Assembly (NCBI GenBank): GCA_964586255.1
Contig: CAZPGE010000002.1
Span: forward strand, 42,065 to 106,064
Reading direction: 5' to 3'
Length of the DNA: 64,000 nt
DNA from: an uncultured Candidatus Saccharibacteria bacterium
GTDB lineage: Bacteria; Patescibacteriota; Minisyncoccia; Phycocordibacterales; UBA2100
Shown: piece by piece, positions 23,500-39,855 of the stretch
Layout: every line of letters begins with the position of its first letter
Numbering within the stretch: position 1 is the stretch's first letter
Program-made: the position numbers and the translations under genes
The notes under the pieces: model-generated
Told to the model about the DNA's origin: nothing
The model's input: only the letters and a program-made list of their open reading frames with translations
Databases searched by the model: none

Positions 23500-24204
23500 C
23501 TAGACGAGTTGTTTCGAATGACAGTCCAACATGAATTGTCGGACTATCTCAGGTATCTTATCGGATTCCGTTTCTCGTTTGATACGGTCAAAGTACCTAA
23601 GCCTCAGCGTCTCTGTCTTGGAGAGAAATGCATCATCCAACTCCGCATTAAAAAGAATACTGTCAGCTGCTTCGCGCAGCGAGACATTCGTGAGGTCTGC
23701 GTACTGCACCACGTAGGGGATGCTCATGAGCATGGACTCATCGTACCCGGACAGTTTGAATTTCTCGGCCTGCATCTTTTTCGTGAGGTAAATCGTCTCT
23801 TGAAAGGCCAGCCCTGTCCCTATCTTCGTGCGCAACCAATTGATTTCTGCGATAACTTGGGTCACGGCTTCGATGCGAGCTACAGCGAGCTTGGCCCGAG
23901 CGGGCAGACTTGGATCGACATCGTGTGGTTGTAGTCTCACGAACGCATGAAACTTTTGCTTGTACCCCCACTCGGGAAGTCGCACCGGATCCATAGAAGC
24001 AAGCGAAAGGCCTGTGTTATCGATAGCTGAGGTGCGAGGGGTAAATTGTGCGTCGGGTATGGAATCCGCGACAACCGCTACGGCTGCGACGTGGGGATGC
24101 AGCGCGAGAAGCGCAAATGTAGGTGGACCGACGAACAGTGCCCCGTAATTCACCGCCGCGCCCCTTGATTCTGTGCCACCGAACACCTTCTTTATGAGAG
24201 ACAT
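23500..24204 (-). CDS. Hypothetical protein (start trimmed to Met133 of the long ORF to remove the 330-bp overlap with the upstream gene)
   Basis: ORF in operon context. No motif recognised. Confidence 0.35.
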   Translation of the reverse strand: MSLIKKVFGGTESRGAAVNYGALFVGPPTFALLALHPHVAAVAVVADSIPDAQFTPRTSAIDNTGLSLASMDPVRLPEWGYKQKFHAFVRLQPHDVDPSLPARAKLAVARIEAVTQVIAEINWLRTKIGTGLAFQETIYLTKKMQAEKFKLSGYDESMLMSIPYVVQYADLTNVSLREAADSILFNAELDDAFLSKTETLRLRYFDRIKRETESDKIPEIVRQFMLDCHSKQLV

Positions 24205-24266
24205 CGAATCGATTATATCGGATGCGCCATCGATTGCGAACGGATGGGCATTTTCTGACGTATCGC

Positions 24267-25148: not shown

Positions 25149-25314
25149 GGAGGTACTATACGACAGAATCATCGGCCTACATGCGGTGACTTTATGCCAG
25201 GCAGGCAACCCGCGACGCTTGACAAGGTGCATGGAGCGATGGATAGTAGAGGTCGGAAGGAGCCGCGCATGCGCTTGGCATGTGTTCGGTGCGCCTGTCC
25301 CCATGGAGATAGCT

Positions 25315-25593
25315 ATGAGAAAGACTTTCTGGGGTCTTACTGGCCTCGCTCTTGCATTCGTCGTGGCACCGTCGCTGGTGCCGCTGCCGACAATGACCGC
25401 GGCCGGCCTCGAAATGAGGATCGACACGGCCGAAGCTCGTTGCGGCGACGAATGCCAGCGGCGTTGCCGCGTCTCGATTGCACAGGGCGAGTACAAGAAC
25501 ATGCGCGCCTGCATCGCGGTCTGGGGACCGCGCAATGATGAGCGGCATCGGCAGATCCGCGCCAACAGGCGCGCGTTCGGTCAGGCTCGCTGA
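25315..25593 (+). CDS. Small secreted Cys-containing protein (92 aa)
   Basis: GGAG RBS. Signal peptide MRKTFWGLTGLALAFVVAPSLVPL... Four Cys in the mature part. Followed by a hairpin. Confidence 0.4.
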   Translation: MRKTFWGLTGLALAFVVAPSLVPLPTMTAAGLEMRIDTAEARCGDECQRRCRVSIAQGEYKNMRACIAVWGPRNDERHRQIRANRRAFGQAR

Positions 25594-25648: not shown

Positions 25649-27295
25649 TTATGATTTCCGTTTTAGACAGTACATCTCATTAGCAACGGTTCGGGCGAAA
25701 AGATGTTTCGTAGTCTCATTGCACGCAATTTTACTCATCATACGCTCGCTTGCCTGGAAATGGCCGCGATGTGTTCCTCGTTCTCTATCCAATTCGTACA
25801 AGCGTCCGTCGTTGGATCCAATAAAAAGTGAGTCGCCAATTGCGATAGGGGAGCCAAACACGCGGCCGTTGGTCTCAAACGCCCAGCGACGTTTCTTGGT
25901 GTCGATGTCTATCGCATAGACGGATTTGTCGAGCGACGCGACATATACCGTATCCCCCTGGACAAGAGGAATCGAATAGATGGCGCCGCCGGTTTCGTAT
26001 GCAAATACGGGTTCGCCAGTATCAGCGGCGAGAGCGTACAACTTTCCGTCCATCGAAGCAACAAACACGAGTCTTCTCTTTGCATCATACGCGGGTGCGG
26101 TCTTTATATCTCCGTCAGTCTTGTATCGCCACATGAGCGCGCCCGTATTTGCTTCGTAGGCGTAGCAGATGCCATCGTTGCTCCCAATCACCACCATCCC
26201 TTCTTCTTTTATATAGAGAGGAGTCCCGTGTGTGAGTGAGGAGGTGATGTCTTGCCAGCGTTTTTCGCCTGTATGCATATCGAGCGCGACAATACCGCCG
26301 CGCTTACCGAATAGCCCAAACTCAAGTCCGATGTAGAGAAGCCCAAGATCCGGCGCAATAGAAGGAGACGAGCCAACCCAATCAGCATCGTCGTATCCCC
26401 ATTTCTTCACCCCCGTCTTTGTATCAAGTGCGTACACGACTCCATCGTACGCACCAAAATAGAGCACTCCCTTGTGGAGTGCAGGTGTAGAGAGAATCCC
26501 CTTACCTTCAGGGTGCTTGCCGACCGTGAATTCCCAGATGATTGCACCAGTCCTCTGGTCGAGCGCCCGCATAGTGCCATCGTCGCATCCGAGAAAGACG
26601 AGCGTATCATCGAGCACCGGCGCAGATTTCTGTACGACAAGGTGGAGGCTGGGGTGCGGCCCCGTATAGCGCCACACAGTCTCAAACTCAGAGTTCTTAT
26701 TCGGCTGCACTTTCTTCAGAAGAGGTATCCCAAAATCTTCGAGGGTAAAAAGATGATTCACCGCGATGCTTCTGTCCTCGAGTGATTTGTATGCATCGCG
26801 CGCCCTGAAGGCGAGCATGGCAAATACATCCGTGACTTTTCTCCCCGTGTCGGCGAGTACTGCGAGCTGTTTCTCAAATGTCGAACCGGTGTTGATAAGA
26901 TCGTCGACGAGAATGACGGGGTGCTCGTCGAGCGTGCCCTCAATCTGGCGCATGAGCCCCTGACGTTTGCGTGACTTTCTTATATAGAAACCATTCACCG
27001 GTGTGCCACGCTCTATGCCCTTCATCACGATGGCGGCTACTAATGCTATGGCGGCCGTTTCCATCGCACCGACCTGGAAAGGGTATTTCGGTGCGTATCG
27101 TTCCCAAAATATCTCGGCGTAGCGATTGAGCCAGTATGGCTGGAGCATGAGAGCGCGAAAATCAAAGAGCCACGACTCGCGCCTCCCCGTACTTTCCGAC
27201 GCGACGATGACCGCACCCGATGATCGTCGCGCAAGGGCGACAGACTCTATTGTTCGGTGTAGGTCGCTATATTTATTGTCCATGCGAATCGTCAT
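25649..27295 (-). CDS. Fusion protein: type I phosphoribosyltransferase domain + PQQ-like beta-propeller repeats
   Basis: PRPP-binding motif VILVDDLINTGSTF. At least six repeats of xDGxxYAxDxxTGxxxW type in the C-terminal 350 aa. Confidence 0.7.
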   Translation of the reverse strand: MTIRMDNKYSDLHRTIESVALARRSSGAVIVASESTGRRESWLFDFRALMLQPYWLNRYAEIFWERYAPKYPFQVGAMETAAIALVAAIVMKGIERGTPVNGFYIRKSRKRQGLMRQIEGTLDEHPVILVDDLINTGSTFEKQLAVLADTGRKVTDVFAMLAFRARDAYKSLEDRSIAVNHLFTLEDFGIPLLKKVQPNKNSEFETVWRYTGPHPSLHLVVQKSAPVLDDTLVFLGCDDGTMRALDQRTGAIIWEFTVGKHPEGKGILSTPALHKGVLYFGAYDGVVYALDTKTGVKKWGYDDADWVGSSPSIAPDLGLLYIGLEFGLFGKRGGIVALDMHTGEKRWQDITSSLTHGTPLYIKEEGMVVIGSNDGICYAYEANTGALMWRYKTDGDIKTAPAYDAKRRLVFVASMDGKLYALAADTGEPVFAYETGGAIYSIPLVQGDTVYVASLDKSVYAIDIDTKKRRWAFETNGRVFGSPIAIGDSLFIGSNDGRLYELDRERGTHRGHFQASERMMSKIACNETTKHLFARTVANEMYCLKRKS

Positions 27296-27304
27296 TCGAC
27301 TGAC

Positions 27305-28018
27305 CTATCCTTTACACACGGTAATCGCAAGCACCGTCTGTTCCTGCTCCTCGTCGAGGTCGAGGAGCTCGGAGATACGTTCGTCGTTGAATCCTGCGTA
27401 CGGTCTGACGTTAAGATCGAGTGCGCATCCAACAAGCAAGATATTCTCACTCATGTGTCCCGCCTCGAGGAGTCCGTGCGTGTATGAGATGTCTCCATAT
27501 TTTGCGGAGGAGCGAGCCCATACGCTCGTGAAGACGATAAGAGTCGAGAGCGGGAGCGGCTCAGGGTACTTTGCCAGACTCTTCATATCGAAATCTTGGG
27601 GCAGATTCCAGAGCTGTTCCAGTGAATGTTCAGTCGGATTGTAGTGAAATACTGCTGGGGCCTGTGACTCGAGCGCCGTTGAGATGACGTATGTCTCTAT
27701 TGGATAGAGCCCGCCTCCGGAGGGGTAGTTTCGATAGTGTGCTCCGGGTCGCTTCTGAAGGGCGAGACCGAGGAGGGTGCCACACTCCTGAAGTGTAAGG
27801 TCGATACTTGGATTACCACTCAAAGCCGAATGACGCTTCTTGATTGCATCGGGCAGGGTGATACTGAGACCTTCTGGCTGCGGGAGAGGCACCTTCTGCA
27901 TCCGCGAATACACCTTGTGTACTCCTCGAGGCACGTCCTCCGGGCGGTGCGTGGCGCCCCTCTTTGTAAGCAGAGCACGGCGCAGTTCGGTATGTAAATG
28001 CGATATAAATGATGTCAT
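27305..28018 (-). CDS. SagB-type dehydrogenase (nitroreductase superfamily; TOMM azoline oxidase-like)
   Basis: YPSGGGLYPIETYV matches the PSAGGLYP signature of McbC/SagB dehydrogenases. Start overlaps the YcaO stop (ATGA). Confidence 0.75.
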   Translation of the reverse strand: MTSFISHLHTELRRALLTKRGATHRPEDVPRGVHKVYSRMQKVPLPQPEGLSITLPDAIKKRHSALSGNPSIDLTLQECGTLLGLALQKRPGAHYRNYPSGGGLYPIETYVISTALESQAPAVFHYNPTEHSLEQLWNLPQDFDMKSLAKYPEPLPLSTLIVFTSVWARSSAKYGDISYTHGLLEAGHMSENILLVGCALDLNVRPYAGFNDERISELLDLDEEQEQTVLAITVCKG

Positions 28019-29508
28019 GAAAATGGATGGGGCCTATCAGCAAACGGCTTGCTCAAGGGAGTATATCCGAGTGCTTTAGGGATGTCGTGCCATCTCGTGC
28101 CGCCAAATTGTTGGACCCACTCGTTGAGGTACGTCGGCTGCAGCTTCGGCATGATGACCATCTCAATGTGCAGAGATGAGGGATTTTTTGCCGATGAGGT
28201 GAGAGGGACCGAGATGCATTCAAGATGTGAGTCTTTGCACCACTGCACCACTCTCTCATAGTGTTCCTCCACAGTATCGATGTCCCACGCTTTGTCACCA
28301 ATCTCGATTTCAGGACCGCGAATCATAAACTCAAGATGCTTCGCGTTTTCAGGTACGCCCCAATAGTACAGGCGCTCGCGGTGGCCGATTTTTTCCGAGG
28401 GGGTGCGCATATCCCAGACGTTTCCCGCGCCAGTCCACAGGCTGTGCGCGCGATATGCCCGGAGCGCCTCAGTCATGGCTTTCTCGATGGCGTAGGGAAG
28501 TGACTGATGTGCCTTGAGGCCGACCACAAAGCGTGGCGCATTGCCACCAATGTCTTCGATGACCACCGCCACGGCGTGTGTCGGCGCGTCAGTGGGAAGC
28601 TGCAGTACGTGCGTTTTGAATTGGTACCTTTCGCACTGTGCGATAGCCCTGGCAAGCGATGGGTATTTCGCGCAGAGAGGGTCGAGTGCAAGGCGGGGAA
28701 GCGTCAATTGGTTAAACCACATCATCATATAGGCATCTCGCTCGATGACTTCAAGCGCTCCTGCAAGTCGTGCGCCGTTCTGTGTTGGCCATGTGGCGAG
28801 TCCGTTCGTGTTTTGTTGTCGTATGATCGGCTCTTCCGTACCACCTGTCATAGCGCGAGGTCGAACACCGCTCACCGTTTGCGCCGGTACGTATATGCGC
28901 TCTCCACTCACGAGAGAAGTGCCCTGAATCCAGAGGTACTCAGCATCTGGGCGGAGTTGCCGCTGAGGATGGCGTGTCCGTTGCTCATCGGAAAATCCGA
29001 CGAAATCCTCCGGGGCCACACGCGGGCCGATTGCACTGATCGCTTCCGAGGTAGCTCTTTTGGGGCTCATGAAATAGTCGTCCTGCGTCATCCAGATGTA
29101 TCGCTCAAGGGCCTCTGCGAGCGCGGCGTAGAGGGCACTCTCGTCATCTTCCCACGAAGTTCCTCCTACGTTGTGACTTGTGGGGTCGTTGCAGATAGCG
29201 TACCAACCTTTGGTTCGCGGTAAATCCGGCCAGAGATTTTTCACTGGTCCGAATGATTGTATGACCCCGTGCTTTTTCAGTAGTGCAGCCAGTGTGAGCG
29301 GTTCGAGTATATCAAGACGAGAAAAGGGTATGCTCCGCAAGTCCTTCACGACTTTGACACCAAGGCTTTTTTCGAGATACTCCGAGAGAGCCCCGAGCGC
29401 TCTCGCTTTAATATCGGAGCTGGAGAGTGTCTCACGGAACGGCACGGCGTCAAAAATCATGCGCCAATCATAGCAGTACCCATACCTCCCAGAAAGCATT
29501 CGCTCCAT
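28015..29508 (-). CDS. YcaO domain protein, paralog 1 (start set at MERMLSG with GGAG RBS; the longer ORF to 29952 carries a Pro/Gln low-complexity antisense artefact)
   Basis: GGTSWEDDESALYAALAEALERYIW and GALEVIERDAYMMMW motifs typical of the YcaO ATP-binding region. 60% identity to the 33278 paralog. Confidence 0.75.
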   Translation of the reverse strand: MERMLSGRYGYCYDWRMIFDAVPFRETLSSSDIKARALGALSEYLEKSLGVKVVKDLRSIPFSRLDILEPLTLAALLKKHGVIQSFGPVKNLWPDLPRTKGWYAICNDPTSHNVGGTSWEDDESALYAALAEALERYIWMTQDDYFMSPKRATSEAISAIGPRVAPEDFVGFSDEQRTRHPQRQLRPDAEYLWIQGTSLVSGERIYVPAQTVSGVRPRAMTGGTEEPIIRQQNTNGLATWPTQNGARLAGALEVIERDAYMMMWFNQLTLPRLALDPLCAKYPSLARAIAQCERYQFKTHVLQLPTDAPTHAVAVVIEDIGGNAPRFVVGLKAHQSLPYAIEKAMTEALRAYRAHSLWTGAGNVWDMRTPSEKIGHRERLYYWGVPENAKHLEFMIRGPEIEIGDKAWDIDTVEEHYERVVQWCKDSHLECISVPLTSSAKNPSSLHIEMVIMPKLQPTYLNEWVQQFGGTRWHDIPKALGYTPLSKPFADRPHPFS

Positions 29509-29524
29509 ACTCCACTCCAGAGCA

Positions 29525-29920
29525 TTGAACATCGTCGGCATTGTTGCGATAATGACTGGTATGGCGATGTTTGAAAAGATGAGTCGTGGCGTGCAAGGCA
29601 TTGTTGGGAAAATCGGGAGTGTAGCGCTCATCATGTTCGGATTTTTGCTGGTGTTTTCTTCCACGCATTCGAAAGCGGGGACTGCCCAGTCGCAGGATGG
29701 AATATTTGGCGCCGACGTCGCCCACGCAGATGCTCCGTATGACCCCAACAGCTGCACTACGGGCGACTGCGTCGCGTGTGCAGCCTGCACGAGTGACGGA
29801 GGGGCGGGTTGCGGCACCGGCGGTTGCACGGGCGGCGCCGATGGAAGTGGTGCTGGAGGAAGCTGTGCCGGCGATTGCGACAGCGGCGACGGCGGCTGCG
29901 GCTGCGGTGCCAGCGGCTGA
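29525..29920 (+). CDS. Candidate RiPP precursor-like peptide 1: hydrophobic N-terminal segment + Cys/Gly/Ser/Thr-rich C-terminus (alternative start 29579)
   Basis: ...DVAHADAPYDPNSCTTGDCVACAACTSDGGAGCGTGGCTGGADGSGAGGSCAGDCDSGDGGCGCGASG*. Divergent from YcaO-1. Confidence 0.5.
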   Translation: MNIVGIVAIMTGMAMFEKMSRGVQGIVGKIGSVALIMFGFLLVFSSTHSKAGTAQSQDGIFGADVAHADAPYDPNSCTTGDCVACAACTSDGGAGCGTGGCTGGADGSGAGGSCAGDCDSGDGGCGCGASG

Positions 29921-29943
29921 TTGCTGCGCATGGCAATGAATAC

Positions 29944-31044
29944 ATGTCTCATTCACTAAAACTCGTTGGTTGGCTCATTGCTTTGCTTGTCATTCCCGCG
30001 GGGTTGTATGCTCTGTATACATATATTTTCTATGACCCGAATCCTAGTCAGTTGACGCGGGATTTGGAGCAGCTCGTCGATGCAAAAGTACGTGGCGATG
30101 ATGCTGCAGCTCTCGCGCAGTACCAGCAGATTCTGAGCGACCCCACATCGACGGCAGAAGAGCGGGCCATAGCCGATGTCTATATAGCCGGTACCGAATT
30201 CAGTCTTTCCGGAGACATGAGCTCGCGACTCAGCGATGTGCGGAAAATGAAGAGGATTGTCGCTGACAGCACACTCTCCGCGACAGTGCGTGCCGCAGCG
30301 ATGAGCGTTCTGGGTAATGCATATGCGGTCTCGGGGGGAGATCCCGCGGTGTTCGCCGAGATCTACAAGGGCGCACCATTTGACTCCTACCTTGTCCCGG
30401 ATAGACCTCAGCTCTCTGCCATCAATCTACTGAAAGAGTCATACGCCATGCAGCCATCGTCGTTTGCGGCGAGCAAAGTGGCCGAGCTTGCTTCAGGTCG
30501 GTATTTTGCGAATCCGCAGCAGGACGCAACTACGACAGCGGCCTACGTCGCACTGGCGGAAGAGTACTTGAACAAGGCGGACATCGCGGCTCTTAGTGAG
30601 GCGCAGCAAAGACCTGCCACATACGCCAGTAGCGATCGATATATTTTGTATAGACTATCGAGAGCGATAACCGTCGGTCGTCTGGCAATACAAAAAGGAG
30701 AGCCATACAAAAATTCCTACCGTAAGGAATTCAATAACTTCATTGCACTTGCGCAATCAATACAGAGCACTCTCGCACACAATGTGGTGTTCAATGCGCG
30801 CTTCCAATACGCGAGGATTCTCGAGGCAGATGGGGATACGACAGCCGAGAAAACACAGCTCGACATACTTGCGCGAGAGTTGGATAGACTCTCCAATCCA
30901 AACACCATTCCGTTCGTGCTCTCCTTGAGAAATGCACGCGCACAGCCGACCGAAGCGATGTGGCTCTCAGTGCAAAGAATGTCGTCGACTTCGCCGGAGT
31001 TTAAGACCGCAATCGACAAGCTCACGGCCGCTTCATCGAGCTAA
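29944..31044 (+). CDS. TM-anchored alpha-helical protein, paralog A (366 aa)
   Basis: N-terminal TM LVGWLIALLVIPAGLYALYTYIF. Homologous to 35098..36231 (KGAPFDSYLV vs KDPPYSTFFV). Confidence 0.55.
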   Translation: MSHSLKLVGWLIALLVIPAGLYALYTYIFYDPNPSQLTRDLEQLVDAKVRGDDAAALAQYQQILSDPTSTAEERAIADVYIAGTEFSLSGDMSSRLSDVRKMKRIVADSTLSATVRAAAMSVLGNAYAVSGGDPAVFAEIYKGAPFDSYLVPDRPQLSAINLLKESYAMQPSSFAASKVAELASGRYFANPQQDATTTAAYVALAEEYLNKADIAALSEAQQRPATYASSDRYILYRLSRAITVGRLAIQKGEPYKNSYRKEFNNFIALAQSIQSTLAHNVVFNARFQYARILEADGDTTAEKTQLDILARELDRLSNPNTIPFVLSLRNARAQPTEAMWLSVQRMSSTSPEFKTAIDKLTAASSS

Positions 31045-31131: not shown

Positions 31132-31728
31132 TTATTTCGGAACCTTGTCGTTCGGGACAATGTCTCCGATCCTGGTCGCGAAGTCGACCCGCATCTGCGC
31201 GATCTGCAGCCGGGTAAACATATCCTTCTTGAACATCGGCCACCACTTCTCGGCCGAATGCAGAACCAGCATCGGCCCCAGATCACCTTGGATGACGCGA
31301 GCGCTCCTCGGATCGCCGGGAGCCTGGAGCCGACCCCACGATGCGCCGAGGGCGCATCTTCCGCCGGCGAACGGCAGATAGGAGTTTTCGCCATCCTTGT
31401 CGGTCTCGGCGAGAAACTTCTTCAGGTTTGCCGCTGACTTGAAACACCAGGTGACGCCCTTCAGCCTCGTCTGGTATTTGTCGCAGTCGGCGACGTCGGG
31501 CTGCCCGCCCTTCTCGGCGTTCAGCCAGGCCGATACGACGTCGTAATCGACCCGCGCACCCTTCTCGTGTTTTTTCCACGAGAATGCCACGCCGTCGTTG
31601 ACGACGATTTCGGTCAGAGGCTTCTTGTCCTCCTTCGCGACTGCGGGCTTCGCCACCTCCTGCGCGAGGCCAGCGCGGGAAAAACATGCCGCGAGGATGC
31701 CCGCGGCAACCAACAAAAGCTTTCTCAT
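31132..31728 (-). CDS. Putative lipoprotein (lipobox LAAC)
   Basis: MRKLLLVAAGILAACFS. No domain recognised. Confidence 0.5.
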   Translation of the reverse strand: MRKLLLVAAGILAACFSRAGLAQEVAKPAVAKEDKKPLTEIVVNDGVAFSWKKHEKGARVDYDVVSAWLNAEKGGQPDVADCDKYQTRLKGVTWCFKSAANLKKFLAETDKDGENSYLPFAGGRCALGASWGRLQAPGDPRSARVIQGDLGPMLVLHSAEKWWPMFKKDMFTRLQIAQMRVDFATRIGDIVPNDKVPK

Positions 31729-31889: not shown

Positions 31890-32429
31890 GCGCCTGAGCG
31901 CAAAGGAGCATGGTCATTGCAGCGACCCGCTACCTGTAAAAAACATACTATGCTTCGCATGAAGGAGCAAGGAAGTCGGCGGGCGGTCACCCGCCCGCCG
32001 CCCCGGATGCTGCTTACGAGCTACTACACCCTAGTCGTACACGTGCCTACCGTGTGGTCACAAACACTGACCGGTGGTGGGGCACCTGTTGCACTTTGGT
32101 GCTTCCGACTTGCTGGCCGAAGCCACTTTCGTCGGATGGCTTGCACGAGTGCCTGCGAGGGCGCTCGTTGATGCAAACACGACTGCAATCGTGCCTGCAA
32201 GCAGCATCATCACTGCGTTTCGCATATGAGTCTCCGATATGCGATGAAGACGGAGGTTTACACGGGAATGTCCGCCAGTCTCCTAGGAGCTCGTCTACGC
32301 AATACTTGAAGAACGATCCCGCGCAGACCTTAGCGCGGTGGAGTGAGTGAGTCAATTTTTGATACTGCTGGTACGATCGCGTGGAGGAATTCCTTGATGT
32401 ATCCCAATAAATATGTACTAGTTCCGGTA

Positions 32430-32481: not shown

Positions 32482-32730
32482 ATGCACAAGAATATCGTGA
32501 TTGCGGCACTCGTAGTGTTCGGAGTCGCCGCCTCGTCGCCCTCGCAGGCGGGGAAGGCATCGGCTCGCACCTGCAGTGGGCAGCACAGCATCTGCCTCAA
32601 CTTCTGCAGCACATCGGGGCGGGGCGGGGACTGTACCAGTGATTGCGCCGGTCGTCAGGCCACGTGCCTGCAGACTGGAACCTACATGTGGATCAACAGT
32701 CCCACGATTAGGGGACTGGTTCGCAAGTAA
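32482..32730 (+). CDS. Small secreted Cys-rich peptide (82 aa, 6 Cys)
   Basis: Signal peptide MHKNIVIAALVVFGVAASSPSQA. Mature part GKASARTCSGQHSICLNFCSTSGRGGDCTSDCAGRQATCLQTG... Confidence 0.45.
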   Translation: MHKNIVIAALVVFGVAASSPSQAGKASARTCSGQHSICLNFCSTSGRGGDCTSDCAGRQATCLQTGTYMWINSPTIRGLVRK

Positions 32731-32887
32731 GGCGACTTGTGCGCCAAAGGGTACGAGACGTGCCAGGCAAACGCCCGCGATGCAGTAGCGTCCGGGCGTT
32801 TTTTTGCGCTACCCCTTTTTGGTTTCAGCGAGACGGTTGCTGAGAGCACCTTGACTCATGGCAATAAAAGTGTAGTAATACAGTCAG

Positions 32888-32928
32888 TCGGGATGAAACC
32901 GGGAGCCCGGGTACCCGCCTTGGAGGCA
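32888..32928 (+). promoter_or_regulatory. Conserved 5' leader, copy 2
   Basis: gtcgggatgaaaccgggagcccgggtacccgccttggaggcaatg. Confidence 0.4.
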
Positions 32929-33174
32929 ATGATGAAAAAGATCCTTCTCGGTACCGTCGTGGGTACCGCCCTGCTTGCGATGTTCGCGCTTACGCCGGCG
33001 TCGGCGCAGGGAACGAACTATGCCGGTCAGTGCTCGAGTTACTCGGCACCGGCGGACTGTCTGAAATGCTGCGGAACATTTCACAAGAGCTCGTACCTGA
33101 GCGCGGAATGCACGAACTCGTGCAAGATCAGCAACTTCCGCGATTCGAGGAACATGTCGCCGAAGCGCAAGTAG
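32929..33174 (+). CDS. Small secreted Cys-rich peptide (81 aa, 6 Cys)
   Basis: GGAGG RBS. Signal peptide MMKKILLGTVVGTALLAMFALTPASA. Mature part ...GQCSSYSAPADCLKCCGTFHKSSYLSAECTNSCKIS... Confidence 0.45.
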   Translation: MMKKILLGTVVGTALLAMFALTPASAQGTNYAGQCSSYSAPADCLKCCGTFHKSSYLSAECTNSCKISNFRDSRNMSPKRK

Positions 33175-33277
33175 TCGCGCGTATCAAGGCGCGCGTCGGA
33201 TGCGTCGGAGAGAAGTCTCCGACGCATTTTTTATTTTCGACGCTTTTTCGCGTAGATGCTTGAGAGGAGGAGAGGTA

Positions 33278-34783
33278 TTAGGCGAATGGGTGTGGCTCGT
33301 CCGTAAACGGCTTCTCACGAGGGGTGATGTCGAAGTGCTGCGGTACGCTTTTCCAGCGCTCTCCGCCCAGTTGCTGGAATTTCTCACTGAGATGCATCGG
33401 TTGAAGCTCCGGTATGACCACCATCTCTATCGACCATGGGGTGGGATTCTTTTTGGAGGTGCCAAGAGAGACCGACACACATTCGTATCCCGAATCTCGA
33501 CACCAGCTCACGATGCGTTGGAGGTGCTCATCCGGCGTGTCGTTTTCCCATTCGGCAAGCGGCACCTCGATTTCTTTTCCCTGCAGAAGCACTTCAAGCT
33601 TTTTTGCATTCTCCGGTGCGCCCCAATACAGAATACGGTCGTAGTGTCCGACCTCGCTTTTCGAGACAGAGGGGTCCCATCGTTTTCCTGCGAGGTCCTG
33701 TCGTCGACACGAAAAGCGCGCGCGGAGTGCTTCTGTCGTTGCTCTCTCTACAGCATGTGTCAATGATCGATGCGCTTTCATACCGAAAGAAAATCGTGGC
33801 ACGTGTCCACTTTCGTCTTCGAGGATGACACACACGGCGTGTGCGGGTGCATCGGTCAGGAGCTGCAGAGCATGCACCTTGAGGCGATAGCGCGCACATG
33901 TACCCACGAATTCCGAGAGCGTCGTGCTGCGTGCGCAAAGACCCTCAAGTGATATCCGGGGCAAGGCGAGTTGATTGAGCCACATAATCATGTACGCATC
34001 GCGCTCGACTACCTCGAGAGCACCGGCAAGTCGTGCGCCGCTTTGCGTGGGCCATGTGGCGAGCCCGGTGGTATTGCGATGCCGAATAAGTGGTTCTTCA
34101 GAATTCCCCAGATCTTGAACGGCGGTTATCGTCTGAGCGGGCACATACGTCGGGTTTCCCGAGACAAGCGAGATTCCTCGCGTCCAGAGAAACGTACTCG
34201 AGGAGTCGAGTCTCCATCCCGGATTCTTTTCGCGTTGCTCCGGGGAGAATGCGACGAAGCGCTCGGGCGCAATCGATGCGCCGTATTTTTGTATAACGTT
34301 ATGCGTCGCCTGCACTGGCGCTACAAAATAGTCTCGCTCCTCAAGCCAAATATACCGCTCAAGCGCTTCTGCAAGAGCGGCTGTAAGGGCGTTCGCATCG
34401 CTCTTCCACGCACTTCCACCGACAGGATTGTTTCTCTTGTCGCCACACACCGCATTCCACTGCGCAATTCGGGGCTCATCAGCAAGATGCGGAGCTCGTA
34501 CAATGGACGCTATCACCCCGCTCTGTTTTAGTTTCTTTGCCAACTCAAATGAATCCAAAAGCTCCGGACGATTAAATGGAATCTGATTCGCATCGAATGC
34601 GATGGTGACGCGCAATTTTCTTTCCAATATATTGAGAATCGAATAGATCGCTCTTTCTTGGAATCCTCCGCGGATTGGGGAGTAGAAATGAGCGAAGGGA
34701 ATGCCTTCAAATATCATGTGGGGATGATAGCAGTCATGCTCAAGGCGAGGAAGCTTCAAGATGCGCGGACTATTATTATCCAC
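33278..34783 (-). CDS. YcaO domain protein, paralog 2 (501 aa)
   Basis: GGSAWKSDANALTAALAEALERYIW and GALEVVERDAYMIMW motifs. Shares the distinctive C-terminal region with YcaO-1 (...YWGAPENAKKLE...PHPFA). Confidence 0.75.
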   Translation of the reverse strand: MDNNSPRILKLPRLEHDCYHPHMIFEGIPFAHFYSPIRGGFQERAIYSILNILERKLRVTIAFDANQIPFNRPELLDSFELAKKLKQSGVIASIVRAPHLADEPRIAQWNAVCGDKRNNPVGGSAWKSDANALTAALAEALERYIWLEERDYFVAPVQATHNVIQKYGASIAPERFVAFSPEQREKNPGWRLDSSSTFLWTRGISLVSGNPTYVPAQTITAVQDLGNSEEPLIRHRNTTGLATWPTQSGARLAGALEVVERDAYMIMWLNQLALPRISLEGLCARSTTLSEFVGTCARYRLKVHALQLLTDAPAHAVCVILEDESGHVPRFSFGMKAHRSLTHAVERATTEALRARFSCRRQDLAGKRWDPSVSKSEVGHYDRILYWGAPENAKKLEVLLQGKEIEVPLAEWENDTPDEHLQRIVSWCRDSGYECVSVSLGTSKKNPTPWSIEMVVIPELQPMHLSEKFQQLGGERWKSVPQHFDITPREKPFTDEPHPFA

Positions 34784-34830
34784 ACATTTCGTTTTTATAT
34801 GACACCCGCAGGGTGAATAATGGGGGAATC

Positions 34831-35091
34831 ATGGTCGCCGTACATATTGCGTATTCGCGAACGCGCGCCATATTTCGCGGAATATCGACCGTATTCCTCA
34901 TGGTATCGGGCTTTTTCTTGATTTTCTTTAGCGCACCTCGCGTCCCGGGCATGTCGGATATTTCTGATGTCGGAGTAGCACATGCCGATGCTCCTGTGGA
35001 TCCTAACGCCTGTACCGACGGCACCGTCCCTGTCGATTATTTTGTCTATGTCGACCCTGGCTGTGGCTGTGGCTGTGGCTGTGGCATCTAA
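34831..35091 (+). CDS. Candidate RiPP precursor-like peptide 2 (86 aa from MVAVHIAY; a possible internal start MSDISDVG would give a 46-aa peptide)
   Basis: GGGGG RBS. ...FLMVSGFFLIFFSAPRVPGMSDISDVGVAHADAPVDPNACTDGTVPVDYFVYVDPGCGCGCGCGI*. Divergent from YcaO-2, 48 bp between starts. Confidence 0.5.
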   Translation: MVAVHIAYSRTRAIFRGISTVFLMVSGFFLIFFSAPRVPGMSDISDVGVAHADAPVDPNACTDGTVPVDYFVYVDPGCGCGCGCGI

Positions 35092-35097
35092 CATAGT

Positions 35098-36231
35098 ATG
35101 GAGCCAGAAAACAACGGACCGCAGAGCCACTTTGCTGGCATAGTGCTTGTCGTACTCGGCGTCCTGGTCGCAGCTCTCATTGGAGGATTCTTCTATATCT
35201 ACGACCGAGTTAAAAACCAGGAGAACGTGACCGACTATACCGTGACAAACACACCCTTCACCGTACTAACTCGAGATAATCAATACTTCGCACAGGCCAG
35301 CGCGGCGGCTCGCGCCGGGAATTATGAGCAGGCAATACAGCTGTACGAGCAAGCGCTCACGCTCGCAGAGGATTCCGCTCAAGCAAGCCAGATACAATTT
35401 ACAATCGCATTGCTTGAAGATCGATACGGGAGCGCGCCTCGAGCAATCGACCTTTACAAGCAGATTGTCATCAGCTCTACCAACGACAACCATCCGCTTC
35501 TGAAAGCGAATGCCATAGCGAATATGGTCGAGCTCTACTATAGAAATGGTGACTCAGCGGTGACGGAACAGATATTTAAAGACCCTCCATATTCGACCTT
35601 TTTTGTTTCCAATGATTTGAGTCTTTCATACCGACGCCTCGCAGAATATGCGGTATCTTTTTACCCGCTCGCTCTTCCTGAGCTGCGCATCGCGAGCTGG
35701 TATGCATATCGCTTGACGGATGTAAGTCGAATCGCAACAGGAGAGGCCACAAGTACCTATCCGGGCATAATCCAGAATGCAATTCTGCGTGCGGACCAAG
35801 ACATAGACCGCATGCGGGCGAACACCGACGACGCGCAGCTCATCCCGAACATCCTCACGCGCAAAAGTGCACTCTATCTCAATATGCATGACGCGGGTCT
35901 CGCGACCGCGCAGGAAACCGAAGAAGTCAACAAAGCTGCGCTCACGATTTACTCCGCGATTGGTGCGCCAGATGCTATCGACGGCTTTGCGAGATACTAC
36001 TACGCGGTGTTTCTCGCAGAACAGGGGTCCTCACGCGCGACCGATTTGCAGGCGGTTGTCTCACCGTTCTATGACAATCCTGGCTACAAAGGTTCGCTCG
36101 CCCTCGCTTTCTTTGCGAGCGAGAAAACCAACGCTCTCAGCCAGAAGTCACGTTTGGTGAAAATCGCTAATGCCGATCCCAAATTCAAGGCGCTCCTGAT
36201 ATCGCTCGGTTGGAATGAAAAAGATCTCTAG
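35098..36231 (+). CDS. TM-anchored alpha-helical/TPR-like protein, paralog B (377 aa)
   Basis: N-terminal TM HFAGIVLVVLGVLVAALIGGFFYIY. Homologous to 29944..31044. Confidence 0.55.
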   Translation: MEPENNGPQSHFAGIVLVVLGVLVAALIGGFFYIYDRVKNQENVTDYTVTNTPFTVLTRDNQYFAQASAAARAGNYEQAIQLYEQALTLAEDSAQASQIQFTIALLEDRYGSAPRAIDLYKQIVISSTNDNHPLLKANAIANMVELYYRNGDSAVTEQIFKDPPYSTFFVSNDLSLSYRRLAEYAVSFYPLALPELRIASWYAYRLTDVSRIATGEATSTYPGIIQNAILRADQDIDRMRANTDDAQLIPNILTRKSALYLNMHDAGLATAQETEEVNKAALTIYSAIGAPDAIDGFARYYYAVFLAEQGSSRATDLQAVVSPFYDNPGYKGSLALAFFASEKTNALSQKSRLVKIANADPKFKALLISLGWNEKDL

Positions 36232-36928
36232 TGTGTCTGATGCCTTTTGGCATCGTTCGGCTACATTTTACCTGTGGCTCTGTCTCGGTGTCTTGTTGGT
36301 GATAGGGCTATCGGTGATTGCACTTGAGAAACACGTCGCGTCGAAAGGGAGCGCCAAGACAGATAGTGAGTCGCTCATCGTGCGCCGCATTACAGAAGAC
36401 GACCATGTCTTGGGCGCAGTCTCAGCTCCAGTACAGGTGATCGTGTACGCGGATTTATCATGCCCGTACTGCAAAAGCTTTTTTCAATCTACGCTCCCAA
36501 AGCTCCGCGCAGCATACGGGGACAAGATTGTTGTGGCGTATAGGCATTTGCCGCTTGCGCAGCATCCCGCGAGCCGTCTTGAAGCGAACGCAGCCGAATG
36601 CGTGGCGCAAGCGGCAGGCAACGATGCATTCTGGCGATTTGTGCAAAAGGTGTATGAACACCCTAAATTTAGGGACGGACTTGCTCTGTCAGATCTCGTC
36701 TCTCTTGCGCAGGGCGATGGCATATCACGGGTACGCATGTCTGCGTGCATAGAGTCTGAAGAATATGGTGACCGAGTACGTACCGATGCGCTTGAAGCAT
36801 CGGTCGCGGGTATTTCCGTGACTCCCGGCGTCGTGCTCAAGTCATCTACACGCGCTCTGATTGTGCAGGGCGATTACCACCGTGAGATTGACGCAGGAAT
36901 TGAATACCTGCTTCAGAGCGGCATTTGA
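36215..36928 (+). CDS. Membrane-anchored DsbA-like thiol:disulfide oxidoreductase (thioredoxin fold)
   Basis: CPYC active-site motif (..VYADLSCPYCKSFF..). N-terminal TM. Confidence 0.65.
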   Translation: MKKISSVSDAFWHRSATFYLWLCLGVLLVIGLSVIALEKHVASKGSAKTDSESLIVRRITEDDHVLGAVSAPVQVIVYADLSCPYCKSFFQSTLPKLRAAYGDKIVVAYRHLPLAQHPASRLEANAAECVAQAAGNDAFWRFVQKVYEHPKFRDGLALSDLVSLAQGDGISRVRMSACIESEEYGDRVRTDALEASVAGISVTPGVVLKSSTRALIVQGDYHREIDAGIEYLLQSGI

Positions 36929-37004
36929 TTTTCGATACTTTTCTGTCCCCAAGTCGGAAGAGAGAACGAGAAATCGAGAAAACACGACCTGTATACTGTC
37001 TTGC

Positions 37005-37478
37005 ATGGAAATGCGCCCTACCTTCATTCTCTCAATCGCGGTGGCGATTGTCGCGACGGCGCTCTTGATTTATTTGACCCCCTTGAGGCACGTTACGCTT
37101 GTGCCGCCAGGTATGCATGAGATGGACCCAAAGGAGTTTTACGATGATTTCAAAGCGAATCCCGACAAATATCTTCTCGTAGACGTCCGTTCGCCGAGTA
37201 TTTTCACATCTGCGCACGCGCAGGGGGCTATCAGCATCCCAATAGAGAATCTCTACGATGAGAAGAACTCGTTGCCGAGAAGCGGAAAGAGGATAGCACT
37301 CATATGTACGACAGGGCGACTCGCAGCAATCGGGTACGGATACTTAGAGAGTCAGGGATTTACGAACCTTATACATATAGAAGGGGGGATGGTGAATTGG
37401 GTGGTCGAGGGGCTCCCGGTCGAAGGTAAGAATGTCGAGCTCGCCGCCTCTACGACCATCCCAGATGAGCATCAGTGA
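37005..37478 (+). CDS. Membrane-anchored single-domain rhodanese (sulfurtransferase)
   Basis: N-terminal TM. Rhodanese fold ...LLVDVRSPSIFTSAHAQGAISIP... with catalytic loop ICTTGRLA. Confidence 0.65.
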   Translation: MEMRPTFILSIAVAIVATALLIYLTPLRHVTLVPPGMHEMDPKEFYDDFKANPDKYLLVDVRSPSIFTSAHAQGAISIPIENLYDEKNSLPRSGKRIALICTTGRLAAIGYGYLESQGFTNLIHIEGGMVNWVVEGLPVEGKNVELAASTTIPDEHQ

Positions 37479-37485
37479 GAAAAGT

Positions 37486-38298
37486 ATGAGTCCTCACGTG
37501 AGGTTCGTGCGCTCAAGAATGGGCATCGGTGCTGTGAGTGCGTCGGTGGTCCTCGTCTCCCTCGCGCTGTTTTTCCTGCGTACTCCGATAGGGAATATAC
37601 AAGAGGACATGGCCTACGCATTATCGCCATCGGCGGAGCGCGCTTTTCAGTACGGTGCGCGACATTTCAGTTCGGATAGGCCCAAGCAGTATGACGTTGA
37701 CCGCGCAGAGTACTTTTTCAATCTTGCCGTGCTCAAAGACCCCACGATTCCATACCTCTACCACCAGCTTGCACGCATCTCTTTCTTGCGCGGCAACTTT
37801 CCGCGTGCGATGACACAGATTAACTACCAAATATCTACGCACGGGGACGCGACGCCAAACTCGTACTACATTCGCGGACTCATCGAAGGGTATATGGGAG
37901 ATTACGAGGACTCTGCGCGCGATTATGAATATTTTCTGCAGTTTGACCCGCGCAACTGGGCGGCGCTCAACGATTATGCGTGGGTGCTCTTGAAAGCAGA
38001 GCGTTTCCGAGACGCTGCCGAAATCACCGCGAGGGGACTTATCGACTTTCCCGACAATCCGTGGCTCCTCAACTCTCACGCCATCGCACTCTTCGAGTTG
38101 AAACAATACGAGGACGCACTCTTGTATGCACAGAAAGCTTCCACGGAAGTCGCAACGTTGAGCGACGCGGAGTGGCTCCATGCATACCCGGGCAATGACC
38201 CTAAGATTGGCGATGAGGGGCTCGCCACCTTCAAGAAGGCCGTCGCGGACAATATGCACACCATCGAACTCGCAATCGCTTCGAGCACGGTACAATAA
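37486..38298 (+). CDS. TM-anchored TPR-repeat protein
   Basis: TM GIGAVSASVVLVSLALFFL then TPR-like helical repeats. Start uncertain (ORF opens at 37432). Confidence 0.5.
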   Translation: MSPHVRFVRSRMGIGAVSASVVLVSLALFFLRTPIGNIQEDMAYALSPSAERAFQYGARHFSSDRPKQYDVDRAEYFFNLAVLKDPTIPYLYHQLARISFLRGNFPRAMTQINYQISTHGDATPNSYYIRGLIEGYMGDYEDSARDYEYFLQFDPRNWAALNDYAWVLLKAERFRDAAEITARGLIDFPDNPWLLNSHAIALFELKQYEDALLYAQKASTEVATLSDAEWLHAYPGNDPKIGDEGLATFKKAVADNMHTIELAIASSTVQ

Positions 38299-38300
38299 GA

Positions 38301-39335
38301 TTGTTTATGACGTATTCGTCTTTCTCTCAGATTGTTCGTCCACATATCCGCGCGCGCCTGTATCTCGTCGTGCTCCTCGCGCTCACCGCAATGCTTGTTG
38401 CGGGTCTCAGTGCTCACAATACAAGCGAGACGTTTGCATCTGCCGAAGTCGAATTCACCGACATTTCTGCACGCGGCATGCACATAGTCCCGGCGTCGTG
38501 CCCTTCGGACCAGCACTACGTGGGGGAGTGCGGCCCGGCTACATGCACGCCGCCCTACACTGGCACCTATCCCAACTGTGTCTACGTACCTCCGGGTACG
38601 GGCGGTCCTGGCGGTGGCGGTGGTGGAATCCCGGGTGTCTCTGGAAATGCGTGCGTTATCGTGCTGAGTCCATCCACGATTACCCTCGGAGGGAGTTCTG
38701 CGATGTCGTGGAATTCAAGTTATTCAGTATTCGGCATTCCGTTTGCCATGAGCGGTACCATCTCTCCCACTCCTGGCGCTGTGGCCGCGTCGGGCGCGAC
38801 GACCGTGAGCCCATCGGTGTCTACCACATACATCGGAACGTTTACCTCAACCGGCGAAGGCCGCCTTCTGGGGGACAAGGGTTCGGGTTGGTTTTCGCCC
38901 GTTACATGCAGTGCTCGCCTCACGGTAATTCCTGCGAATGAAGTGCCTGGAAGTTGCAGTGTGTACAACTTTTGTAGAGGATCGGATGTCTACCAACGGA
39001 CAGCTAGCTGCACAGACCAATTTGTCCGAAGCTGTGCATTTGGATGTGCAAACGGCGTGTGTCTTGGCGCCCCTGCGCCCACCGGATTCTTGCGCGCGCA
39101 GCCCTCGCTTGTGCGACAGGGCGACACAACGACAGTGGAGTGGGGTGCAACGCAGGTGAGCTCGTGTACCGTGACTGGTACCAACGGAGACTCATGGAGT
39201 GGTAAAAGCGGGACGCAGACATCGAGGGATATTACTTCGAGGACCACATACACACTTTCGTGCATTGGACTCGATGAATCTGTGCTTGAGATGACCGCGG
39301 TGGTCAATGTTACGCCAATATTCGATGAGCAGTAG
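38301..39335 (+). CDS. Secreted protein with Gly-rich stretch, 6-Cys module and C-terminal Ig-like domain
   Basis: C-terminal ...CTVTGTNGDSWSGKSGTQTSRDITSRTTYTLSCIGLDESVLEMTAVVNVTPIFDEQ* parallels the ...NILPVFNEQ* ends of the 7119 and 9077 proteins. Confidence 0.6.
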   Translation: MFMTYSSFSQIVRPHIRARLYLVVLLALTAMLVAGLSAHNTSETFASAEVEFTDISARGMHIVPASCPSDQHYVGECGPATCTPPYTGTYPNCVYVPPGTGGPGGGGGGIPGVSGNACVIVLSPSTITLGGSSAMSWNSSYSVFGIPFAMSGTISPTPGAVAASGATTVSPSVSTTYIGTFTSTGEGRLLGDKGSGWFSPVTCSARLTVIPANEVPGSCSVYNFCRGSDVYQRTASCTDQFVRSCAFGCANGVCLGAPAPTGFLRAQPSLVRQGDTTTVEWGATQVSSCTVTGTNGDSWSGKSGTQTSRDITSRTTYTLSCIGLDESVLEMTAVVNVTPIFDEQ

Positions 39336-39360: not shown

Positions 39361-39855
39361 ATGAACGTCTCTCTCAAAAGTATCAAAGTAAGCTTCATCA
39401 TAGGTGCGCTTGCCCTGATGTTCTTGAGTGCCACGTTGGGCAGCGTGTTTGCCCAGACACAAGACGATGCACTCAAAAGCACCATACGCGCAGCGATACA
39501 GGCCGATCCACGTTCCCAAGGCATGACGGAGGCAGAAGTCGACGCCATGGTACAAGCACTTTCTCACCAGGCAGAGTCAGTCGGCATGACATCGGAGGAC
39601 ATCGTATGGCGGCCGACTGGAGAAGGGGCAGTAGGTGGAGATGCACCCCTCTGCGATGGGGTGCTCTGCGGACTCAACTACGCCTTCGGTCTCGACGGCT
39701 CAAACTACACGATTCCGATATGGCTCGGCGCTTGCGCGCTCATGCTCATGTTTATCATTGCGGGTATTCTCGAGTACCGACACCTCCACCACAAGAAAGC
39801 CGAAGAAGGGCAGGGGGCAATGTCGCAGGGTACAAACGACGGCGCGCAGCTCTAG
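39361..39855 (+). CDS. Hypothetical membrane protein (signal peptide + C-terminal TM)
   Basis: Hydrophobicity pattern only. Confidence 0.4.
   Translation: MNVSLKSIKVSFIIGALALMFLSATLGSVFAQTQDDALKSTIRAAIQADPRSQGMTEAEVDAMVQALSHQAESVGMTSEDIVWRPTGEGAVGGDAPLCDGVLCGLNYAFGLDGSNYTIPIWLGACALMLMFIIAGILEYRHLHHKKAEEGQGAMSQGTNDGAQL

Follow-up and report, generated by a model that had tools for sequence, protein, structure and literature searches.

A probable linear azol(in)e peptide cassette with a signal-anchor leader and an extracytoplasmic TPR/DsbA/rhodanese module

Locus 2, a gene cassette at 33278-37478 of a 64,000-nucleotide (64-kb) stretch of contig CAZPGE010000002.1 (the whole stretch is called the window here), probably encodes a variant of the linear azol(in)e peptide (LAP) systems in the class Paceibacteria. 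Its putative precursor, pep2, would carry a signal-anchor leader; its YcaO enzyme, YcaO-2, would work without a partner containing an RRE, the recognition element for peptides that are made on the ribosome and then modified post-translationally (RiPPs); and the genes beside pep2 would supply an extracytoplasmic module of tetratricopeptide repeat (TPR), DsbA-like, and rhodanese proteins. A sequence-only reading of the window had listed a YcaO, a small open reading frame (ORF), a helical protein with a transmembrane (TM) segment, a CPYC-containing DsbA-like protein, and a rhodanese, and all of these are present (Table 1).

YcaO-2 and the pep2 peptide family

The YcaO-2 ORF, read from its GTG codon, occupies 33278..34783 on the minus strand and is 501 aa, the length given in the sequence-only reading. 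However, almost all of 120 listed homologues are about 479 aa long, and their start matches the ATG at 34717; thus, the protein itself is likely 479 aa. The small ORF that had been placed 48 bp from the YcaO start is indeed divergent and begins 47 nt from the GTG, but its distance from the supported ATG is 113 nt.

The class of the YcaO was assigned by model scores and fold matches. YcaO-2 scores 142 bits against Pfam YcaO. The SagD-family model TIGR03604 matches it at 174.9 bits across model positions 5-377 of 377, a score below the trusted cut-off of 219, and the McrA-thioamidation model TIGR03266 gives 44 bits against a cut-off of 365. By these measures, YcaO-2 is of the SagD type, that is, the azoline-forming type. 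The JGI label for these proteins, 'ribosomal protein S12 methylthiotransferase accessory factor', is an automatic transfer; NF040716, the equivalog model for the E. coli-type S12 accessory protein, does not match YcaO-2 and reaches only 19 bits with YcaO-1, its paralogue at locus 1, against a cut-off of 700. A ribosome-modifying YcaO, considered because of the position of the cluster in the S10 operon, was rejected on the lack of a match to this E. coli-type model.

In an alignment of 26 homologues, two ExxER runs (E117, E120, R121 and E235, E238, R239) and a C-terminal P-H-P-F are invariant or nearly so. We take the residues of the two runs, together with the proline-rich C-terminal end, to correspond to the ATP/Mg site of YcaO enzymes. 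A proline-rich PxPxP C-terminus marks azoline-forming YcaOs (PMC12338566). YcaO-2 ends in ...PF.D.PHPF(A/S), in which P475, H476, and P477 vary little or not at all; having only a P-x-P at the very end, this counts as a variant of PxPxP. The earlier reading had called the C-terminal region unusual; it is not, as the match to the SagD-family model continues through this region to the end of the model.

The AlphaFold2 (AF2) model of YcaO-2 has a pLDDT of 92.7. In the PDB, three azoline-forming heterocyclases (LynD, MusD, and TruD) match the fold best, ahead of archaeal thioamide YcaOs and McbD; the thioamide-forming structures 6ci7 and 6pe3 are also among the matches. The alignment with LynD covers 461 columns of the 479 residues and lies within the YcaO portion of LynD; thus, YcaO-2 is a bare YcaO domain. 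Residues 1 to 105 are modelled as beta-alpha-beta-alpha-beta3 and, from this model, are judged to contain no winged helix. A hidden RRE or E1 domain in the N-terminus is ruled out by the model together with the Foldseek alignment.

A database search with pep2 returned only 3 matches, probably because of the word index of the search and missed gene calls. The peptide family was recovered by a six-frame profile search of the fetched loci; 27 members were aligned, and the junction motif was scored in 42 non-redundant peptides. Common to the aligned leaders are an N-terminus of basic character, a helix that is strongly hydrophobic and contains an invariant Gly with Phe after it, and a linker of 11-26 residues that leads to the junction consensus G-(V/I)-A-H-A-(D/E)-(A/V)-P. 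All 42 scored peptides have Ala at -1 and an acidic residue, Asp or Glu, at +1; position -2 is His or Tyr (His in 38/42), and position -3 is Ala, Val, or Thr. Such an A-x-A junction would fit the -3/-1 rule of type I signal peptidase. In pep2, the invariant glycine is G27, followed by F-F. The hydropathy of its helix is 2.04, and the flanking charges are +3 before and -2 after; therefore, pep2 is predicted to lie with its N-terminus in and its tail out. A type IV prepilin-like signal, suggested by the invariant G-F, was rejected because the Gly lies mid-helix, with no more than 8 hydrophobic residues after it, and position +5 is not Glu.

The family cores are hypervariable, rich in Gly, Ser, Asp, and Cys, and 23-71 residues long, with 0-14 cysteines. 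The pep2 core has 5 Cys in 34 residues, 4 of them within GCGCGCGCG. A perfect hexanucleotide repeat (TGGCTG, 4.7 copies, 100% match) at 35058-35085 codes for this Gly-Cys block. The block, DPGCGCGCGCG(F/I), is kept in three relatives (L035, P0121, and P0122) and appears as the variant DPGCGCGCCCGCGGF in another (P0123), while the remaining core varies; in the YcaO-2 sub-lineage its conservation reaches down to 60-88% peptide identity. Thus, the block persists although the perfect repeat that encodes it is prone to slippage.

A Shine-Dalgarno-like run, GGGGGAA, lies 2 nt upstream of the pep2 start codon. In a promoter scan of the spacer between YcaO-2 and pep2, matches were no commoner than in shuffled sequence. 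Both pep2 and pep1, the locus-1 precursor, are masked by longer antisense ORFs, 34795-35130(-) and 28015-29952(-), respectively. In contigs from other runs of the same organism, gene callers report a 99-aa antisense ORF in place of pep2 (L060, 7318-7617); therefore, standard annotation and genome-mining pipelines may under-report this peptide family.

Table 1. Features of locus 2, its peptide-side arm, and locus 1 (window coordinates)
Feature	Coordinates	Strand	Description
YcaO-2, SagD-like cyclodehydratase	33278..34717	(-)	479 aa from ATG; ORF reaches GTG at 34783
YcaO-2/pep2 divergent spacer	34718..34830	.	Weak promoter-like match 34794-34821(+); GGGGGAA run
pep2 ORF	34831..35091	(+)	86 aa, divergent from YcaO-2; C-terminus GCGCGCGCGI; full end ...VAHADAPVDPNACTDGTVPVDYFVYVDPGCGCGCGCGI
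pep2 leader, residues 1-52	34831..34986	(+)	Basic N-terminus, TM helix, linker, G-V-A-H-A junction
pep2 core and stop codon	34987..35091	(+)	DAPVDPNACTDGTVPVDYFVYVDPGCGCGCGCGI; Gly-Cys block at 3' end
TPR-TM2	35098..36231	(+)	377 aa; one N-terminal TM helix, TPR-like solenoid of ~8 repeats
DsbA/BdbD-like thiol-disulfide oxidoreductase	36215..36928	(+)	237 aa; membrane-anchored by N-terminal TM helix
Rhodanese, single-domain, membrane-anchored	37005..37478	(+)	157 aa; sole Cys C101 (37305-37307), loop CTTGRL
TPR3	37432..38298	(+)	Second membrane-anchored TPR protein; start codon uncertain; Pfam TPR_17, TPR_2, TPR_19
p344	38301..39335	(+)	Cys-containing anchored/secreted protein; syntenic in most loci
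p164	39361..39855	(+)	N-terminal signal/anchor and C-terminal TM helix; last arm gene, directly before rplC (39965)
SagB-type FMN dehydrogenase, locus 1	27305..28018	(-)	TIGR03605 107.6 bits, cut-off 78.4
YcaO-1	28015..29460	(-)	Locus-1 paralogue
pep1	29561..29920	(+)	Locus-1 precursor, same leader family; 63-aa Gly/Cys/Ser/Asp core
TM1	29953..31044	(+)	Membrane-anchored helical partner of pep1, type 1 subfamily
Strong hairpin, 14 pairs	33198..33229	.	Terminator-like scan; between convergent stops of YcaO-2 and Cys-rich ORF, at the place of SagB in relatives

The membrane-anchored arm, its conservation, and the paralogous locus 1

A gene of the TPR-TM2/TM1 family directly follows the peptide in every locus where both genes were located. 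The Pfam TPR matches of TPR-TM2 are all below cut-offs; its AF2 model (pLDDT 81) is all-alpha, and its best folds are the peptide-binding TPR domains of LGN/Pins. From this model, TPR-TM2 appears to be a solenoid of the peptide-binding type; encoded directly after the peptide, it is the putative cognate partner of pep2. The DsbA-like protein matches Thioredoxin_4 at 73.7 bits and DSBA at 37.1 bits, and its CPYC motif (C83-P-Y-C86) is encoded at 36461-36472. The nearest solved structures are 4n30, 3f4r, 3eu3 (BdbD), 4pwo, and 4xvw, all of which we take, partly from depositor names, to be extracytoplasmic oxidoreductases. No DsbB, BdbC, or VKOR partner that could re-oxidize it was found in the window. 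The rhodanese scores 45.8 bits against Pfam Rhodanese, with PspE and GlpE models matching below cut-offs, and C101, G104, and R105 of its loop, which is of the CxxGxR type, show little or no variation among 10 orthologues. It resembles single-domain sulfurtransferases, including the periplasmic PspE, and sulfurtransferase activity is predicted. Farther along the arm, TPR3 is syntenic in most loci, and p344 has no Pfam match.

One N-terminal TM or signal segment is present in each of pep2, TPR-TM2, the DsbA-like protein, the rhodanese, TPR3, p344, and p164, and none in YcaO or SagB. Across orthologues, the flank charges vote for an N-in/C-out orientation by 19:3 for the rhodanese, 29:5 for TPR3, 13:0 for p344, 12:5 for DsbA, and 15:6 for TPR-TM2. 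The peptide-side arm is, thus, predicted to be extracytoplasmic.

In 14 loci (L004 12787-13311, L006 14410-14937, L035 5581-6045, L046 2075-2656, and 10 more), the cluster comes with a polytopic membrane protein of ~175 aa. This protein bears GFGCA(A/S)CG(T/S)LF in a TM segment and a C-terminal P-x-V-C-P, has no Pfam match, and could be a DsbB-like partner or a transporter. A profile search of the 64-kb window found no homologue.

Conservation was followed in two sets of loci. A pattern scan of species-representative genomes gave 32 YcaO-centred loci, to which close-homologue look-ups added others, for ~40 Patescibacteria loci; the non-redundant sets used for synteny counts held 40 YcaOs for peptide pairing and 41 for the position of SagB. 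All but one of the scanned loci (31/32) come from entries titled as Patescibacteria types (Kaiserbacteria, Nomurabacteria, Adlerbacteria, Paceibacterota, and others), the exception, L018, being titled Methanosarcinales archaeon. The rhodanese-centred set came from a metagenome scan with the rhodanese alignment and comprises 23 loci, of which 21 are informative.

The recurring order is p164 < p344 < TPR3 < (rhodanese < DsbA) < TM/TPR < peptide <> YcaO > SagB > phosphoribosyltransferase (PRTase)-beta-propeller. A divergent peptide, scored as a leader-profile match within 450 nt of the YcaO, is present in 36/40 non-redundant loci. SagB lies directly 3' of YcaO in 39/41, the exceptions being YcaO-2 of the window and the second copy in L028. 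As the sequence-only reading would expect, the neighbours are conserved together: TPR-TM2 is followed by DsbA and then the rhodanese in 18/21 rhodanese-centred loci and by the rhodanese directly in 3/21. Eight further YcaO-bearing loci contain the DsbA-rhodanese pair (7 from the YcaO-centred scan, plus L035), and among rhodanese-centred loci with enough upstream sequence a YcaO is present in 8, along with SagB where the contig reaches.

Two distinct loci (L045/L046 and L052) contain the cluster without a YcaO. Each has a leader peptide, whose core is Pro/Gly-rich with 2 Cys, together with TPR-TM2, DsbA, and rhodanese. In the place of YcaO, L046 (666-2931) and L052 (2007-5042) encode a 2-oxoglutarate (2OG)-Fe(II) oxygenase, an SDR-like protein, and the polytopic CxxC membrane protein, with a Stf0 sulfotransferase in addition in L052. 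The YcaO-less peptide/TPR pairs indicate that the constant unit is the peptide plus its TPR partner. Because the AHADAP junction persists without a YcaO in L046, the junction would be read by the export or processing side and not only by the YcaO. These clusters look like a swap of the tailoring module on a constant chassis.

The claim that locus 2 repeats the architecture of locus 1 is borne out by pairwise alignment. The two YcaOs share 49% identity over 488 aa (E 2e-165), and the leaders of pep2 and pep1 are 42% identical (E 2e-11). TPR-TM2 and TM1 are barely similar pairwise (E 0.004), but their orthologue alignments match in hhalign with a probability of 99.7% (E 1.3e-26, 300 columns). 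The 645-aa ORF of YcaO-1, 28015-29952(-), is lengthened by ~160 Pro/Ala-rich residues that run antisense through pep1; it is called as 638 aa in L060. In a neighbour-joining tree, from which the YcaO clades were taken, YcaO-1 belongs to a clade with TM1-type partners throughout, while YcaO-2 groups with L035 and L033, whose partners are of the TPR-TM2 type. On this tree, the YcaO clades track the partner subtype, and the sequence comparisons indicate that the two cassettes are long-diverged subtypes whose paralogy is real and ancient. A recent tandem duplication is ruled out by the 49% identity and by the placement of the YcaOs in different clades. Two full YcaO-SagB cassettes are also present in the genomes of L001 and L029; since multiple cassettes are common, the two-cassette state of the window is typical of the group.

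Locus 2 was said to have no dehydrogenase of its own, and it does not: tblastn (E<0.5) found neither a SagB gene nor a remnant there. A SagB pseudogene downstream of YcaO-2 was considered and rejected, the sole match being a 20-aa chance stretch at 31292-31351 (E 0.26). The SagB of locus 1, 5.3 kb from locus 2, is the only such gene found in the window. L035, described as the closest relative, has a YcaO 74% identical to YcaO-2, and its DNA is 69% identical and colinear over window 37490-33268, after which SagB follows. Exactly SagB is missing from the window, while the gene beyond it, a Cys-rich secreted ORF, is retained and the colinear stretch has no frameshifts; by this alignment the two differ at locus 2 by a clean loss of one gene. 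The identical SagB-less layout recurs in further data for the same organism (contigs from two more sequencing runs plus an ENA assembly) and, therefore, is not an assembly artefact. From these comparisons, locus 2 is judged to have lost its dehydrogenase recently. Given that 39/41 relatives have SagB after YcaO and that L035 shows a clean one-gene deletion, borrowing the locus-1 enzyme, as the sequence-only reading had suggested, is the simplest reading, and locus 2 probably uses that SagB.

Proposed pathway, rival readings, and known systems

In the proposed pathway, pep2 would be made as an 86-aa precursor whose leader serves as a signal-anchor (basic N-terminus, TM helix, linker of 11-26 residues, and G-V-A-H-A followed by D-A-P). 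In the cytoplasm, YcaO-2 with ATP would, judging from its family, cyclodehydrate Gly-flanked Cys, above all those in GCGCGCGCG, to thiazolines. The SagB of locus 1 would then oxidize these in trans to thiazoles; otherwise, azolines would remain. The precursor would insert into or cross the membrane by its own N-terminal helix, and, going by the -3/-1 rule, type I signal peptidase may cut after A-H-A. Outside, the tail would meet its cognate anchored TPR solenoid along with the DsbA-like protein, the rhodanese, TPR3, p344, and p164. The CPYC oxidoreductase and the single-Cys rhodanese would act there as a pair that oxidizes or handles thiols, rather than as a sulfur donor to YcaO, and their targets may be leftover cysteines of the peptide or co-encoded Cys-containing exported proteins.

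Several observations weigh against this pathway. Most characterised azoline-forming YcaOs need an E1-like, Ocin-ThiF, or RRE partner, and the window ORFs scanned with Pfam and NCBIfam include no match to any of these. We know of no precedent for a TM helix as leader in the azoline-peptide class, and the A-H-A site, at 11-26 residues past the hydrophobic core, is long and atypical for a signal-peptidase site. Some cores (L011, L008, and L014) have 0-1 Cys. Extra pairs of peptide and TM/TPR genes without a YcaO of their own occur in L006, L014, L022, and L028; such cassettes, together with the replacement of YcaO by the 2OG oxygenase, mean that the peptide is not strictly YcaO-dependent. Finally, the presence of DsbA does not track how many cysteines the core has, or whether their number is odd or even (the median is 3 Cys in DsbA loci and in DsbA-less type-2 loci alike), and thus the disulfide management of a Cys-rich product that the sequence-only reading had offered is weakly supported.

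The YcaO-less modules and the Cys-free cores would also suit a pep2 that is no YcaO substrate at all, but an anchored low-complexity envelope protein handled by the TPR, DsbA-like, and rhodanese proteins, while YcaO-SagB modifies, for example, a ribosomal or other cellular protein. The lack of an RRE partner, the location of the cluster inside a split S10 operon between rpsJ and rplC, and the S12-accessory-factor naming by JGI point the same way. We nevertheless regard this as unlikely, given the divergent YcaO-peptide pairing in 36/40 loci, the co-variation of YcaO clades with partner subtype, and the model scores of the two YcaOs against the E. coli-type S12-accessory family. Moreover, Gly-flanked tails rich in Cys and Ser, as in microcin B17 and Balh, are the classic substrate type of azoline YcaOs, and the partnership with SagB is specific to azoline oxidation. 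There is also very little chance that locus 2 is a decaying, non-functional duplicate that has lost SagB, the PRTase-propeller, and the CxxC membrane protein, leaving only locus 1 active. SagB is indeed deleted, the CxxC membrane protein common in relatives is absent from the window, and locus 1 is complete; against this, none of the locus-2 ORFs is broken, and YcaO-2 retains each residue that is invariant in the family. Relatives whose peptides are down to 60-88% identical still have the Gly-Cys block of the core, the colinear alignment with L035 DNA shows no frameshifts, and contigs from other runs have the same layout.

The sequence-only reading had suggested thioamidation, in which YcaO-2 would activate backbone amides and the rhodanese would supply persulfide sulfur, yielding thioamides instead of or besides azolines. 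A rhodanese with an active-site Cys 2.3 kb from YcaO-2 and conserved with YcaO in many loci, the lack of a dehydrogenase at locus 2, and the existence of thioamide-forming YcaOs, two of whose structures are among the fold matches, are what this idea draws on. We consider it highly improbable. All peptide-side proteins carry N-terminal anchors, and the rhodanese domain is predicted to lie outside in 19/22 informative homologues, from where it could not easily feed an ATP-dependent cytoplasmic enzyme. In addition, the rhodanese is always paired with a DsbA of extracytoplasmic type or with a TPR gene and persists in YcaO-less clusters; a scan of window ORFs gave no TfuA match; YcaO-2 reaches 44 bits with the thioamidation model and 175 with the SagD model; and all close relatives pair their YcaO with SagB. 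The rhodanese as a sulfur donor for thioamidation was rejected on its predicted topology, the lack of a TfuA match in those ORFs, and the module's persistence without YcaO.

The azoline pathway places locus 2 near the LAP (TOMM) synthetases SagBCD (streptolysin S) and McbBCD (microcin B17). As in these systems, a SagD-family YcaO is joined with a SagB-type FMN dehydrogenase (here at locus 1, and adjacent in 39/41 relatives), and the precursor, whose Gly/Ser/Cys-rich core resembles McbA, is encoded beside the YcaO; the structural matches include McbD. Unlike SagBCD and McbBCD, no C protein (SagC, McbB, or another E1-like/RRE protein), dedicated protease, or ABC exporter was found here. The locus also differs in its TM signal-anchor leader with the AHADAP junction, in its extracytoplasmic TPR/DsbA/rhodanese arm, and in a YcaO below the trusted cut-off of the SagD model (175 vs 219 bits).

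According to Sharrar et al. (2020, mBio; PMC7298704), biosynthetic clusters are rarely reported in bacteria of the candidate phyla radiation (CPR); 110 YcaO-based LAP clusters were identified there in 93 CPR genomes (51 Parcubacteria), and a nitroreductase adjoins the YcaO in 89 of the clusters. The kind is, thus, already known at the level of genome mining, and the present cluster very probably belongs to that set. The example described there, from Microgenomates, has a peptidase and an 84-aa precursor, unlike the present cluster, and the text consulted contains no mention of a signal-anchor leader, a one-to-one TPR partner, a DsbA-rhodanese module, a SagB-less cassette, or YcaO-less variants. 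Literature searches likewise gave no account of the signal-anchor leader family, the TPR partner, the DsbA-rhodanese module, the tailoring swap, or the SagB-less second cassette.

Bufferins are Sec-exported RiPP metallophores whose Cys are converted to heterocycles in the cytoplasm before export and form a disulfide after it (PMC11626156). The present system would resemble them in that a putative N-terminal export signal would replace a classical leader, heterocycles are proposed to form before export, and the locus may be physiological rather than antibiotic. However, in bufferins it is an MNIO iron enzyme, together with a DUF2063 protein, and not YcaO/SagB that produces the heterocycles, which are 5-thiooxazoles, and no Pfam match to MNIO (DUF692) or DUF2063 was found in the ORFs scanned. 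Bufferins also have standard signal peptides and folded cores. For the rhodanese, a parallel is PspE, a periplasmic single-Cys rhodanese that can drive disulfide formation with DsbC (Chng et al. 2012, as cited in PMC5403849). In both cases, a single-Cys, single-domain extracytoplasmic rhodanese is paired with a thioredoxin-fold CxxC oxidoreductase, but here both are membrane-anchored and encoded inside a RiPP-like cluster, with no DsbB or VKOR found in the window. We infer cooperation between the DsbA-like protein and the rhodanese from their conserved adjacency only.

A broader, tentative possibility is that the cluster is no antibiotic locus but a Sec-routed, modular system by which Paceibacteria make modified peptides that are membrane-anchored or lie on the surface. 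A constant leader/TPR chassis would then be served by swappable YcaO/SagB or 2OG oxygenase modules, with or without a sulfotransferase (L046 and L052), and by a CPYC/rhodanese disulfide pair that works without DsbB; in other genomes, the novel CxxC membrane protein may join in disulfide formation. To our knowledge, Paceibacteria-type hosts lack quinones and respiratory chains. If this modular proposal is true, it would be the first YcaO-type RiPP family to use the general secretion pathway and to need no RRE. For RiPP enzymology, the interest lies in a YcaO/SagB system that apparently recognizes its substrate without an RRE partner and in a leader that doubles as a membrane anchor; for redox biology, it lies in the conserved pairing of DsbA with a rhodanese, which may be a way to form extracytoplasmic disulfides without DsbB. 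Many Paceibacteria keep the locus, often in two copies and wedged in the S10 operon, despite their minimal CPR genomes, which argues for an important role at the cell surface.

Genomic surroundings

The S10 operon is split in the window: ~20 kb containing both YcaO cassettes lie between rpsJ (19495-19854) and rplC (39965), and the peptide-side arm runs co-directionally into rplC. In L033 (5221-20353), a 14-kb insert with the same cluster likewise separates rpsJ from rplC. A fusion of a PyrE-like PRTase with a PQQ-type beta-propeller, 25649-27295(-), has no signal peptide and follows SagB in most loci; it is 45-78% identical across the L001-L029 set and is more conserved than the YcaO. Near this fusion in several loci are a QueC-like PP-loop ATPase, recurring in L003, L008, L013, and L029, and a protein of ~230 aa, found in L009, L012, L013, L016, and L021; the corresponding window positions are 24267-25565(-) and 23500-24600(-).

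Between the two cassettes are small secreted Cys-rich ORFs and a 198-aa signal-bearing protein, at 32482-32730(+), 32866-33174(+), 32058-32225(-), and 31132-31728(-), and no Pfam family matches any of them. L022 encodes a 78%-identical homologue of the 198-aa protein, and L035 conserves the ORF ending at 33174 behind its SagB. These proteins are candidate substrates of the DsbA-like protein.

Upstream, ~10 kb lie between the genes for EF-G (the 3' part of fusA, 88-1239) and EF-Tu (tuf, 11125-12327). One product of this insert is an 889-aa protein that combines PG_binding with F5/8 type C domains; two large ORFs of the insert, 7119-9080 and 9077-10888, share a domain with p344, their C-terminal halves being 36% identical to it. 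A Fic/DOC family protein is encoded just after tuf, 12470-13594(+), and a 937-aa protein with a TraG/TraD C-terminal domain, 55322-58135(+), lies downstream of spc operon genes (secY, adk, and map). The Fic/DOC and TraG/TraD genes may be mobile or conflict-related insertions in this core region.

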